Origin: Escherichia coli
Lineage (GTDB): Bacteria > Pseudomonadota > Gammaproteobacteria > Enterobacterales > Enterobacteriaceae
Reading direction: 5' to 3' (one strand)
Length of the DNA stretch: 64,000 nt
NCBI RefSeq assembly: GCF_003334305.1
Contig: NZ_QOWS01000010.1
Shown here: positions 31,956-57,106 of the stretch, piece by piece
How the letters are laid out: every line of letters begins with the position of its first letter
How positions within the stretch are numbered: position 1 is the first letter of the stretch
Program-made: the position numbers and the translations under genes
Notes under the pieces: model-generated
Seen by the model: only the letters and a program-made list of their open reading frames with translations
Told to the model about the DNA's origin: nothing
Databases searched by the model: none

Positions 31956-33887
31956 TCAAATGGGGCGGATACTTTCTTCATCCAGCTCCGCATCGAAGAA
32001 CCGACGCAGGGTCTGAATATTATTATCCGCAATAATGGACTCGCGCGCCTGCGCAAGTTTTTCTTCGTATATCGCCTGACGCCACTCCAGCGGCGTACGC
32101 ACCGCGGGATTATCATCTTCAACGATAGTCAGTTCAACCGTTGAACCTTTTAACGTGCTCAACGCTTCAGCCAGTTTTTGCTGTGCACCGCGGTTGTTCA
32201 AATGCCGCTGAGAGGAGCGCAAATGCAGACATACTGCGTTGTCGCTCTCCTCTTTCCAGGCATTTAAGGCCACCTGTTCGACCAGTTTTGGTAGCGAAAG
32301 TTGACTCACCTGTGCCGCCCACGCGTCGCGCTCAATGGCTTCTGCCGCCAGCTTCGCCGCCAGTTCCGGCGTTTTTTCATGTTCCAGCGCTTTTTTCAGC
32401 GCCTTCGGCGTGGCGACCACTTCTTTTTGCTGCATCACTGGAGTGGTAGCCTTCCAGCGATACGCTTCTTTTTTGGCTGGCGCTTTTTCCAGCGCCGATG
32501 GCACCGGACGCGCCTGAACGCGATCGGTGACCGAAGCCAGTCTTTCCAGCGCAGCGTTATTCACCGGCCGCGCGCGGGTAGCGGCTGCCGGTTCACTCTT
32601 TTTTGCTTTGGTTGCTCCCTGCACGCGCTGCAACTGCTGGCGCGCCGCCAGCACCTGGCTGGTGGTTTCCGGGAGCGGTACAGTCGGTGCCTGCTGCGGC
32701 GCTGATTGCGGTTGCGGCGGCACCTGGGTTGGCGTCATTACTGCCGTTGGCGCGACGGGCGCAAAGGACTGGCGTGGCACTTCTGGCTCAGGCAGAGGCA
32801 TACGTGGATGGAACGCCAGCGCGCGCAGCAGCGTCATCTCAACGCCCATGCGGCGGTCCGGCGCATACGGTAATTCTTTGCGACCAATCAACAGCGTCTG
32901 ATAGTAAAGCTGAATATCCGTCGGCGGTATGGTGCGCGCCAGTTCACGCATCCGCAGCTCAATGGCGGCCATGTCGTTGCCAAGTGCAGCAGGCGAAAGT
33001 TGTACCATCGCAATACGATGCAACAGGCCGAGCATTTCCACCAGCAACGCTTCCCACTCGATACCACGGGCAGCGGCTTCATTAATCAGCGCCATTACGC
33101 GCTCGCCGTTGGCCTCGACCATCGCTTCAACCAGCGACAGCGCCTGATCGTCGTCAAGCGTACCCAGCATCGCACTGACTGCCTGGGTTGAAACCTGGCC
33201 GTCACCGCTGGCAATCGCCTGGTCGGTCAGACTTAAGGCATCTCGCAGGCTGCCTTCAGCGGCGCGCGCCAGCAATTGCAACGCCCGCGGCTCGTGAGCG
33301 ATATGTTCTTCGTTGAGGATGTGCTCAAGTTGATGGCGAATTTGCTCGACATCCAGCGCCTTGAGATGAAATTGCAAACAGCGCGACAAAATCGTCACCG
33401 GCAATTTCTGTGGATCGGTCGTCGCCAGCAGAAACTTAACGTGCTCCGGCGGCTCTTCAAGGGTTTTTAACAGTGCGTTAAAGCTGTGGCGCGACAGCAT
33501 ATGCACTTCGTCGATCAGATAAACTTTGAAACGACCACGCGCCGGAGCGTACTGGACGTTATCCAGCAGGTCGCGGGTATCTTCAACTTTGGTGCGCGAG
33601 GCGGCGTCGATTTCAATCAGATCGACAAAGCGCCCCTGCTCGATTTCACGACAGTTATCGCACACGCCGCACGGCGTCGCGGTAATGCCGGTTTCGCAGT
33701 TTAGCCCCTTCGCCAGCAGTCGGGCGATAGAGGTTTTTCCGACGCCACGGGTACCGGAAAAAAGATAAGCATGATGAATACGCCCTAACGACAAGCCGTT
33801 CGCCAGTGCGGTCAGCACATGTTCCTGGCCGACGACGTCAGCAAAGGTTTGTGGGCGCCATTTTCGGGCTAAGACCTGATAACTCAT
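31956..33887 (-). CDS. dnaX: DNA polymerase III tau subunit (gamma by frameshift), 643 aa
   Basis: ORF track; AAA+ Walker A GTRGVGKT; recognised DnaX sequence. Confidence 0.98.
   Translation of the reverse strand: MSYQVLARKWRPQTFADVVGQEHVLTALANGLSLGRIHHAYLFSGTRGVGKTSIARLLAKGLNCETGITATPCGVCDNCREIEQGRFVDLIEIDAASRTKVEDTRDLLDNVQYAPARGRFKVYLIDEVHMLSRHSFNALLKTLEEPPEHVKFLLATTDPQKLPVTILSRCLQFHLKALDVEQIRHQLEHILNEEHIAHEPRALQLLARAAEGSLRDALSLTDQAIASGDGQVSTQAVSAMLGTLDDDQALSLVEAMVEANGERVMALINEAAARGIEWEALLVEMLGLLHRIAMVQLSPAALGNDMAAIELRMRELARTIPPTDIQLYYQTLLIGRKELPYAPDRRMGVEMTLLRALAFHPRMPLPEPEVPRQSFAPVAPTAVMTPTQVPPQPQSAPQQAPTVPLPETTSQVLAARQQLQRVQGATKAKKSEPAAATRARPVNNAALERLASVTDRVQARPVPSALEKAPAKKEAYRWKATTPVMQQKEVVATPKALKKALEHEKTPELAAKLAAEAIERDAWAAQVSQLSLPKLVEQVALNAWKEESDNAVCLHLRSSQRHLNNRGAQQKLAEALSTLKGSTVELTIVEDDNPAVRTPLEWRQAIYEEKLAQARESIIADNNIQTLRRFFDAELDEESIRPI
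32598..32604 (-). other. dnaX: Programmed -1 frameshift heptamer A_AAA_AAG in dnaX (gamma subunit)
   Basis: Reverse strand ...GCA AAA AAG AGT GAA...; -1 frame reads AAA AAA GAG TGA, giving ...KKE-stop (stop at complement of 32593-32595). Confidence 0.9.
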
Positions 33888-49416: not shown

Positions 49417-49530
49417 GGGTGGGGGCCCTGCCAGCTACATCCCGGCACACGCGTCATCTGCCTTGGCTGCTTCCTTCCGGACCTGACCTGGTAAACAGAG
49501 TAGCGTTGCGGGAGAACCAACAGAGCCCCC
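49417..49530 (-). ncRNA. ffs: 4.5S RNA (signal recognition particle RNA), 114 nt
   Basis: Reverse complement reads GGGGGCTCTGTTGGTTCTCCCGCAACGCTACTCTGTTTACCAGGTCAGGTCCGGAAGGAAGCAGCCAAGGCAGATGACGCGTGTGCCGGGATGTAGCTGGCAGGGCCCCCACCC. Confidence 0.97.
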
Positions 49531-51724: not shown

Positions 51725-53011
51725 TTACGCGTTATAGGCATTCTCGCCGTGACTGTTGACATCCAGCCCTTCTCGCTCCTGCTCTTCCGGTACACGCAGA
51801 CCAACCGTCAGATCCGCCAGTTTGTAGCCAATAAATGCCACCACACCGGACCAGACGATCGTAATGGCGATGCTTTCCAGCTGTACCAGCAACTGATGGC
51901 CCATCGTCACACCTTCAGCGAAGCCCACGCCACCCAGCGAACTGGCGGCAAAAATCCCAGTCATGATACAGCCGACAATGCCACAAACGCCGTGCACACC
52001 GAAGACATCGCAGGGATCATCCACCCGCAGCAAGCGTTTGAGCATAGTAACGCCCCACAAGCCCGCCAGACCAGCTACCACGCCGATAATCAACGCGCCG
52101 CCAACCCCAATGTAGCCACACGCTGGCGTCACGCCGACCAGACCGGCAATCGCGCCAGAACACGCTCCCAGCAGAGAAGGCTTACCACGCAGCGCCCATT
52201 CACCGAAGATCCAGCCAAGAATTGCCGCCGCCGTTGCGACCACAGTATTCACAAATGCCAGTGCCGCGATTTCATTCGCCGTGCCCGCTGACCCGGCGTT
52301 AAAGCCAAACCAACCAATATAGAGAATGGCAGTACCGGTGAAGACCATTGGCAGGTTGTGCGGTTTAAACGCCTCTTTGCCGAAGCCCACGCGTTTGCCT
52401 ATCAGATACGCGCCCACCAGACCGGCGATTGCGGCGTTAATATGCACCACCGTGCCACCCGCGAAATCCAGCGCACCGTGAGAAGCCAGCAAACCACCGC
52501 CCCACACCATATGCGCAATCGGAATGTAAGAGAGCGTCAGCCATACCACCACGAAAATCAACACAGCTGAGAAGCGGATTCGTTCCGCCAGCGCCCCAAC
52601 GATCAAGCCGACGGTAATGCAGGCAAACGAGCCCTGAAACGCCACGTGGATATACTGATAAATGCTGCCCATCACCGCCGTCAGTTCGATGTTTTTTAGC
52701 ATCAACCAGTTAATGTTGCCGAAGAAGTTGTTGCCCTCACCAAACGCCAGCGAGTAACCGTAAACCACCCAGAGAATACAGACCAGTGCAAACGTCACCG
52801 TCACCTGCGTCAGCATCGACAGCACGTTTTTGCCGCGAATCAACCCACCGTAAAACAGGGCAATCCCCGGAATAGTCATAAACAGCACCAGCGCAGTACA
52901 AATCATCATAAACGCATTGTCGGCTTTATCGGCCACCGCAGGTGCAGCCATTACCAGTCCCGGCAGCATCGCCAGTGAAGCAAGCCCAGTTTTTATCGTC
53001 GCTATCTTCAT
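51725..53011 (-). CDS. amtB: Ammonium channel AmtB, 428 aa
   Basis: ORF track; signal peptide plus 11-TM Amt/MEP profile. Confidence 0.98.
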   Translation of the reverse strand: MKIATIKTGLASLAMLPGLVMAAPAVADKADNAFMMICTALVLFMTIPGIALFYGGLIRGKNVLSMLTQVTVTFALVCILWVVYGYSLAFGEGNNFFGNINWLMLKNIELTAVMGSIYQYIHVAFQGSFACITVGLIVGALAERIRFSAVLIFVVVWLTLSYIPIAHMVWGGGLLASHGALDFAGGTVVHINAAIAGLVGAYLIGKRVGFGKEAFKPHNLPMVFTGTAILYIGWFGFNAGSAGTANEIAALAFVNTVVATAAAILGWIFGEWALRGKPSLLGACSGAIAGLVGVTPACGYIGVGGALIIGVVAGLAGLWGVTMLKRLLRVDDPCDVFGVHGVCGIVGCIMTGIFAASSLGGVGFAEGVTMGHQLLVQLESIAITIVWSGVVAFIGYKLADLTVGLRVPEEQEREGLDVNSHGENAYNA

Positions 53012-53040: not shown

Positions 53041-53379
53041 TTACAGCGCCGCTTCGTCGGCTTCGCCGGTACGAATACGAATGACGCGTTGCAATTCAGC
53101 GACGAAGATTTTGCCGTCGCCAATTTTTCCGGTGTAAGCCGCCTTACTGACGATATCGATCACTTCATCGAGTTGGTCATCAGCAATCGCCACATCAATT
53201 TTTACTTTTGGCAGGAAGTTGACGCTGTATTCCGCCCCCCGGTACAGCTCGGCATGCCCTTTCTGACGCCCGAAACCTTTCACTTCGGTGACGGTCAGGC
53301 CCTGAATACCAATGGAAGATAACGCTTCACGAACGTCTTCCAGCTTGAATGGTTTGATTATCACGGTCACCAGCTTCAT
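53041..53379 (-). CDS. glnK: PII nitrogen regulatory protein GlnK, 112 aa
   Basis: Track ORF 53041..53517; start placed at MKLVTVIIKPFKLEDVREAL; T-loop RGAEY; 29 nt upstream of amtB. Confidence 0.97.
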   Translation of the reverse strand: MKLVTVIIKPFKLEDVREALSSIGIQGLTVTEVKGFGRQKGHAELYRGAEYSVNFLPKVKIDVAIADDQLDEVIDIVSKAAYTGKIGDGKIFVAELQRVIRIRTGEADEAAL

Positions 53380-53431
53380 AGATCCCCTCCGGTCAGAATT
53401 CGGTAATGGTTCTGCTACACGAAGAAGGTAT

Positions 53432-53447
53432 TGCAAGCGGTGTGCCA
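53432..53447 (-). promoter_or_regulatory. sigma-54 (-24/-12) promoter of glnK-amtB
   Basis: Reverse strand TGGCAC-ACCGC-TTGCA (consensus TGGCAC-N5-TTGCA), about 53 nt upstream of the glnK ATG. Confidence 0.85.
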
Positions 53448-53500
53448 GAAATGAAAAACGAGAAAGAGAGCAGGAAGTTAAGAAGATTGAAAATGAAAAC

Positions 53501-53515
53501 GCACTATGACAGTGC
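53501..53515. promoter_or_regulatory. Candidate NtrC enhancer site upstream of PglnK
   Basis: Palindrome GCACT-ATGAC-AGTGC about 60 bp upstream of the sigma-54 element, followed by TTGCACCAAC; resembles NtrC half-sites (TGCACC). Confidence 0.5.
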
Positions 53516-53559
53516 ACAGTGCGTTACATTTTTGCACCAACGATGAAATATTGCGCTAT

Positions 53560-57106
<3,547 letters not shown>

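Follow-up and report, generated by a model that had tools for sequence, protein, structure and literature searches.

The glnK-amtB operon of E. coli is almost certainly transcribed from a single promoter, glnKp, at which sigma-54 RNA polymerase is activated by phosphorylated NtrC (NtrC-P) bound to an upstream DNA dyad, and this same dyad doubles as part of a hairpin. This interpretation of glnKp is already known and long established. Occupancy of the region by sigma-54 and NtrC, as well as dependence on rpoN and glnG, were demonstrated by others in strain K-12; the positions of the motifs, their conservation, their helical phasing and the covariation within the hairpin come from the present analysis. 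The promoter is in standard use as a reporter for NtrC activity and for nitrogen starvation in E. coli. The value of the locus here is that of a positive control: a real and well-validated regulatory site was recognized from sequence alone.

We analyzed the whole 64-kb stretch of DNA (hereafter the window), in which glnK, amtB and the ABC exporter gene mdlB (also called smdB) all lie on the minus strand, as do the regulatory features between them (Table 1). Gene identities were assigned by protein profile searches. GlnK matched NCBIfam model NF007946 with 236.8 bits against a cut-off of 181, with the GlnB model staying under its own cut-off, and AmtB matched NF007947 with 880.5 bits against a cut-off of 657. 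Both members of this adjacent and co-directional pair thus exceed their equivalog cut-offs. MdlB/SmdB matched NF008056 with 1185 bits. The RefSeq annotation of identical DNA names the same genes (glnK, amtB and mdlB), in agreement with the profile calls. The stop codon of mdlB and the ATG of glnK are separated by a spacer of 180 nt. Between the mdlB stop and the glnK ATG, 193 of 194 bases are identical to K-12 MG1655, with no insertions or deletions. The single difference, at window position 53486 (T here, A in K-12), is located in the spacer outside every motif. Since the spacer differs from that of K-12 by only one base, results published for K-12 apply here. The 351 bases around the site are matched in 5424 of 5426 complete E. 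coli genomes, many of them at 100% identity. Outside this region, the window is unremarkable E. coli chromosome, extending from ppiD to copA and ybaT.

Table 1. Features of the mdlB-glnK-amtB region, in window positions; distances with a minus sign are relative to the predicted transcription start unless they name a promoter element
Feature	Position	Strand	Remarks
amtB	51725..53011	-	428 aa, ammonium channel; 29-nt gap after glnK
glnK	53041..53379	-	112 aa, PII-type nitrogen regulator; ATG starts at 53379
Shine-Dalgarno sequence of glnK, GGAGGGG	53384..53390	-	GGAGGGG or a near variant kept in the species compared
Predicted transcription start	53421 +/-2 nt	-	42-nt 5' UTR; placed by rule
CT-rich heptamer CCTTCTT	53422..53428	-	-7 to -1; published anti-Shine-Dalgarno 'insulator' of glnKp
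Sigma-54 core promoter CTGGCACACCGCTTGCA	53432..53448	-	-24 element TGGCAC 53447..53442; -12 element TTGCA 53436..53432
Pyrimidine-rich spacer, NtrC site to promoter	53449..53499	-	51 nt, ~84% C+T on the sense strand by count
T-rich tail TTCATTTTCA	53488..53497	-	directly after the hairpin
Terminator-like hairpin AACGCACTGTG-CACTGT-CATAGTGCGTT	53498..53525	-	right half of the NtrC site serves as its 3' arm
NtrC (NRI) site TGCACTGTCATAGTGCG	53500..53516	.	centred at -87
Conserved NtrC half-site TGGTGCA	53533..53539	-	implied 17-mer centred 33 bp upstream of the dyad, ~-120
mdlB (smdB), ABC exporter gene	53560..55341	-	co-directional, upstream of glnK; TGA at 53562..53560

A first-pass annotation of the DNA had noted TGGCAC-N5-TTGCA on the reverse strand, about 53 nt upstream of glnK. 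Both the motif and the distance were found as described: the element occupies 53447..53432 of the minus strand with ACCGC as its five-base spacer, and the A of TTGCA lies 53 nt ahead of the ATG. The exact pattern TGGCAC-N5-TTGCW occurs only once in the window, against 0.06 occurrences expected; when one mismatch was allowed, two matches were found against 2.3 expected. A promoter scan detected no sigma-70-type promoter in the mdlB-glnK spacer. In its consensus, its orientation, its short distance to the gene and its conservation among orthologues, the element belongs to the class of sigma-54-dependent promoters. The predicted transcription start was placed 12 nt downstream of the C in the GC of the -12 element, which corresponds to 19 bp from the motif centre (rule of PMC4591121), and we infer the exact start site from this rule; a literature search found no mapped transcription start for glnK. 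In the sigma-54 ChIP-seq study from which the rule was taken, the motif CTGGCACACCGCTTGCA is reported at glnK with a start predicted 42 nt before the gene, and the glnK promoter is marked 'predicted' in the EcoCyc version used there (PMC4591121). Another study lists glnK among 18 known sigma-54 genes, with promoter tttcTGGCACACCGCTTGCAATacct at -68 to -51 from the ATG, and reports that glnK expression drops 18.8-fold without rpoN (PMC2831329).

The same annotation had described a palindrome, GCACT-N5-AGTGC, about 60 bp further upstream and had taken it for an NtrC enhancer. The palindrome is indeed present on the minus strand at 53515..53501 (GCACT at 53515..53511, then GTCAT, then AGTGC at 53505..53501). 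The distance was a fair estimate, as the gap to TGGCAC is 53 nt and the two centres are 68 bp apart. The site TGCACTGTCATAGTGCG resembles the NtrC consensus TGCACCAnnnTGGTGCA, quoted in PMC8743547; of the 12 positions specified by TGCACY-N5-RGTGCA, 11 fit. With its centre at -87, the site also falls in the range of ~80-150 bp upstream of a sigma-54 promoter that is expected of an NtrC enhancer. Reading the palindrome as an NtrC enhancer is supported by this consensus, by conservation and by the K-12 data; the reading was incomplete in that a terminator-like hairpin and an additional half-site had been missed. The pattern GCAC-N7-GTGC occurs once in the window against 2.1 occurrences expected, so that the dyad alone is not improbable. 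Its sole copy is however located ~55 nt upstream of the sole exact sigma-54 match, correctly oriented ahead of a nitrogen-regulation gene, and the joint chance of this placement of dyad and sigma-54 element is roughly estimated at ~3e-4.

Enhancers usually have two NtrC sites. In the E. coli glnK spacer we found one full site, the other candidates scoring at most 9/12, near chance level. Upstream of the dyad lies the perfect half-site TGGTGCA, and in 62 of 112 orthologous regions GGTGCA occupies the same place relative to the dyad. The implied 17-mer is centred 33 bp, about three helical turns, from the dyad centre. Because the left half of this 17-mer is degenerate in E. coli (7/12 by count), this half-site may be at most a weak second NtrC site. 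A second full site at -139 (AGCGCCTGAATAGCGCA, overlapping the mdlB stop) was considered and rejected, since a score of 9/12 is roughly what is expected by chance over 250 nt and the candidate falls within conserved coding sequence. In other species, matches were seen ~62 bp upstream of the main site; they coincide with the region of the mdlB stop codon and are therefore not independent evidence for a second site. The sequence gcCTGATGCACCAnaaTCAGGCa straddles the mdlB stop in many Enterobacteriaceae (loci L005, L013, L014, L037, L058, L113 and others). This short inverted repeat carries a perfect TGCACCA half-site within its loop and is found at one offset in 48 species. E. coli is without gcCTGATGCACCAnaaTCAGGCa, and its distance from the mdlB stop to the dyad is 43 nt instead of 62 nt.

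To place these motifs in a comparative frame, orthologues were collected from one genome per species by the GlnK N-terminus, MKLVTV[IV]IKPFKL[ED], a pattern independent of the promoter. The scan yielded 120 loci, comprising Enterobacterales, Gilliamella and two Sutterella; 119 of these loci together with the window gave 120 usable upstream regions. TGGCA[CT]-N5-TTGC is kept in 117 of the 120, mostly 64-71 nt before the ATG (counted from the T of TGGCA). A sigma-54 element together with a perfect GCAC-N7-GTGC further upstream was found in 114 of the 120 regions, and this conservation is the strongest argument against chance. In a gapless alignment of 113 orthologues anchored on the dyad, the GCAC and GTGC blocks are the only invariant columns. 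In nearly every species sampled, glnK is preceded by mdlB on the same strand; for Gilliamella, no mdlB was detected ahead of glnK.

We then measured the distance between enhancer and promoter as the position of the dyad centre relative to the predicted start. The dyad is located at -87 in 8 species (E. coli, E. albertii, Leclercia, Silvania), at -97/-98 in 11 (several Citrobacter, E. cloacae, E. hormaechei), at -107 to -109 in 10, at -117 to -119 in 10 (among them Salmonella arizonae), at -128 to -130 in 11, and at -137 to -144 in 55 (Pantoea, Erwinia, Yersinia, Atlantibacter). The spacing classes (-87, -97, -108, -118, -129 and -141) are thus separated by steps of ~10.5-11 bp. With shared ancestry ignored, the Rayleigh R peaks at 0.82 near a period of 11 bp (~10.75-11 bp strongly favoured); for unique spacings, R is 0.67, a value that none of 20,000 random sets reached, shared ancestry again being ignored. 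Spacings of 78, 99-100 and 121 nt are found within Citrobacter, and of 78, 88-90 and 120-122 nt within Enterobacter. Since single genera cover several spacing classes, changes in spacing happened repeatedly. The flanks of the dyad move with it and the spacer does not align between species, which locates the length changes in the spacer. Such whole-turn phasing is what short-range looping between NtrC and the sigma-54 polymerase would predict, and supports a functional role for the dyad: as the loop is short, the NtrC site would have to be kept on one face of the helix, so that spacer length would vary only by whole turns. The spacing would then add comparative evidence that short-range sigma-54 activation is constrained to one face of the helix and, if true, its whole-turn quantization across species would be the natural-variation counterpart of face-of-helix experiments.

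Published data on K-12 link the region to NtrC. By gSELEX, RpoN holoenzyme and NtrC were both found at the mdlB/glnK spacer in vitro, the supplement giving only the RpoN motif for glnK (PMC8743547). In NtrC ChIP-seq of nitrogen-starved cells, glnK-amtB is peak 1, and glnK mRNA, hard to detect in a glnG deletion, was restored by complementation (PMC4066584). Assuming U00096.2 coordinates, the ChIP-seq interval of that study (471741-471821) translates to window positions 53460..53380. It covers the promoter and the 5' UTR, and the dyad lies 41 bp past its edge. This offset may reflect ChIP resolution or cross-linking through a loop; the interval does not pinpoint the dyad. The literature searched contained no NtrC footprint or base-resolution NtrC site at glnK, and the exact contacts of NtrC given here are those predicted from the consensus. 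The promoter was further reported to depend exclusively on activation by NtrC, with an NtrC-specific activity ~400-fold higher under ammonium starvation (PMC3870243). In Salmonella, nitrogen limitation raised the activity of a glnKamtB promoter fusion from 1.1 to 1778 Miller units, ~1,600-fold (PMC3844500). The proposal that glnK-amtB is nitrogen-regulated is thus borne out by sigma-54 and NtrC occupancy and by rpoN and glnG dependence in K-12, and by the induction seen in Salmonella.

The dyad is also embedded in a potential RNA structure. A terminator scan identified a stem of 11 pairs (5 G-C) closed by a 6-nt loop, with AAAAA ahead of it and TTCATTTTC behind. The structure is located 35-43 nt past the mdlB stop, the hairpin beginning at 35 nt, and the NtrC dyad forms the upper stem. 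The RNA fold of this hairpin has an energy of -18.8 kcal/mol (z = -3.6), and none of 200 shuffled sequences folded as well. In most Enterobacteriaceae, 7 or 8 T are found within 8 nt at the position of the tail; in E. coli the tail is interrupted. Covariation was evaluated on 106 distinct sequences, of which 66 have a T-run, defined as 6 or more T among the 8 nt that follow the dyad. Six or more of the seven outer pairs of the stem are formed in 51 of these 66 sequences and in 2 of the 40 without a T-run (Fisher p = 7e-14, phylogeny being ignored), and mean folding energies are -15.6 and -8.9 kcal/mol, respectively. At stem pair 13-26, 43 sequences carry C-G and 11 (Escherichia, Citrobacter) carry T-A, a compensatory change. 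The A of this T-A pair accounts for the difference between the right half-site of E. coli, TAGTGC, and the NtrC consensus, TGGTGC. Across the full set of 113 sequences, pairing in the stem amounts to only 69% of cells, because a third of the taxa are without the hairpin; the analysis by subset was more informative. In most Pantoea, Yersinia, Dickeya and Gilliamella, the NtrC core is kept, and the T-run and the extended stem are absent.

A stem-loop with a U-tract after a stop codon, a compensatory change and a T-tract that co-occurs with the stem are thus all observed. As in intrinsic terminators, a looped stem containing G-C pairs follows a stop codon, with an A-tract on its 5' side and a T-rich tail on its 3' side; unlike in typical ones, the stem doubles as a protein-binding dyad. 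The hairpin looks like an intrinsic terminator of mdlB or mdlAB, an activity that we infer from these features. A literature search found nothing on an mdlB/glnK terminator or on an overlap between a terminator and an NtrC site. From the comparison of species, we conclude that the NtrC core is probably the universal feature, and that a terminator-like hairpin for mdlAB appears to have been built around this core in the Enterobacteriaceae. The more specific idea that the enhancer site was co-opted in this family as the stem of an mdlAB terminator, so that one 28-nt element serves as DNA dyad and as RNA hairpin, seems to us evenly balanced between right and wrong. Two such roles would constrain each other, as the TAGTGC of E. 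coli and several Citrobacter and the matching T in the left arm would illustrate. A dyad common to protein binding and to a terminator hairpin would represent overlapping codes within a 180-bp spacer.

The hairpin raises the question of whether the dyad could be the mdlAB intrinsic terminator only, its resemblance to an NtrC site being incidental and NtrC binding elsewhere in the spacer. The location of the dyad inside an 11-bp hairpin with a T-tract shortly after the mdlB stop, the compensatory change in the stem, and the fact that the published NtrC ChIP-seq interval excludes the dyad would all agree with this. However, GCAC-N7-GTGC is invariant in Pantoea, Yersinia, Dickeya and Gilliamella, which have neither T-run nor extended stem, the distance between dyad and promoter is helically phased, which a terminator would not need, and elsewhere in the E. 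coli spacer the match to the NtrC consensus never exceeds 9/12. This explanation fails, since the core persists in taxa without a terminator and stays in helical phase with the promoter, and we consider it very improbable.

It is also conceivable that the sigma-54 promoter is driven by another enhancer-binding protein, since E. coli has several of them and, by count, 4 of 14 positions in the dyad do not fit the NtrC consensus. Against this, glnK mRNA is lost in a glnG deletion and comes back on complementation, NtrC was found at the locus by ChIP and bound in vitro, and the conserved core is the NtrC core; a different activator is accordingly extremely unlikely. We attach just as negligible a probability to both motifs being chance matches in an AT-rich spacer. 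Although GCAC-N7-GTGC is expected about twice per 64 kb, the expectation for an exact sigma-54 match is just 0.06 per window, both motifs are kept in ~95% of 120 species chosen without reference to them, and binding was shown experimentally in published work.

Under the preferred reading, activation of glnKp by NtrC-P, sigma-54 RNA polymerase would rest on TGGCAC-N5-TTGCA as a closed complex, unable to start alone. When glutamine is low, NtrB would phosphorylate NtrC, and NtrC-P would bind the dyad TGCACTGTCATAGTGCG at ~-87, probably aided by the weak half-site TGGTGCA at ~-120, and assemble into an ATPase ring. This ring would loop across the short pyrimidine-rich spacer to the polymerase and use ATP to open the promoter, and transcription starting near 53421 would lead to GlnK and AmtB. 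In E. coli and other Enterobacteriaceae, the hairpin would end mdlAB transcripts just before the sigma-54 complex. The hairpin, and then the anti-Shine-Dalgarno motif, would keep mdlAB transcription from the waiting polymerase and from glnK expression, and would thus form two layers protecting glnK-amtB against mdlAB read-through.

The anti-Shine-Dalgarno motif corresponds to the published insulator of glnKp. In the passages of that study considered here, the key 7-nt CT-rich region is placed at -4 (Levy et al., bioRxiv 10.1101/086108); the heptamer CCTTCTT at -7 to -1 and the CT-rich upstream flank are also present in our sequence. These passages describe a 50-bp promoter fragment in synthetic constructs and do not mention a hairpin at the NtrC site. 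In read-through RNA, CCTTCTT folds onto GGAGGGG with an energy no better than that of shuffled sequences (z = 0.25), and this fold was therefore rejected as stand-alone support. The pairing of CCTTCTT with GGAGGGG is possible only in transcripts that read through from upstream.

Among known systems, glnKp of E. coli K-12 is the same locus: its 17-mer promoter is identical, and mdlB, glnK and amtB flank it there too. Like glnKp, the E. coli promoter glnAp2 depends on sigma-54 and is activated by NtrC-P, in its case bound to dyads further upstream. Its NtrC sites, centred at -108 and -140, coincide with two of the phase classes found among glnK orthologues, and the 32 bp between them are close to the 33 bp between the glnK dyad and the half-site TGGTGCA. 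Compared with glnAp2, glnK has one full site, which is closer (-87), and there is no overlapping sigma-70 promoter like glnAp1. Atkinson et al. are said to have reported in 2002 that glnK needs more NtrC-P than glnAp2. The TAGTGC half-site may weaken the NtrC site and help to set this high threshold. The glnK promoter was also called 'simpler', with activation kinetics different from those of glnAp2 (PMC3870243). The glnKamtB operon of Salmonella, strongly induced by nitrogen limitation, has the orthologous sigma-54 promoter TGGCACATCCTTTGCA, and the S. enterica arizonae locus (L065) carries a perfect NtrC dyad, TGCACCGTCATGGTGCA. The Salmonella dyad is centred at -117, about three helical turns further than the -87 of E. 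coli, and the 5' UTR is 52 nt long versus 42 nt. The shared dyad and hairpin, together with the whole-turn spacing, may help in the design of compact sigma-54/NtrC circuits and in the reuse of glnKp.

Elsewhere in the window, CTGGCACTGGTTTTGCT is located at 12909..12925 on the minus strand, in sense orientation inside ybaT (430-aa open reading frame, 12363..13655). It corresponds to the intragenic sigma-54 ChIP-seq site IS02 of PMC4591121, upstream of cueR. Rfam matches on the minus strand comprise the dnaX frameshift element (32559..32623), the small RNA sroB (18742..18825) and the small SRP RNA, ffs (49426..49522), all of which are expected for that part of the E. coli chromosome.
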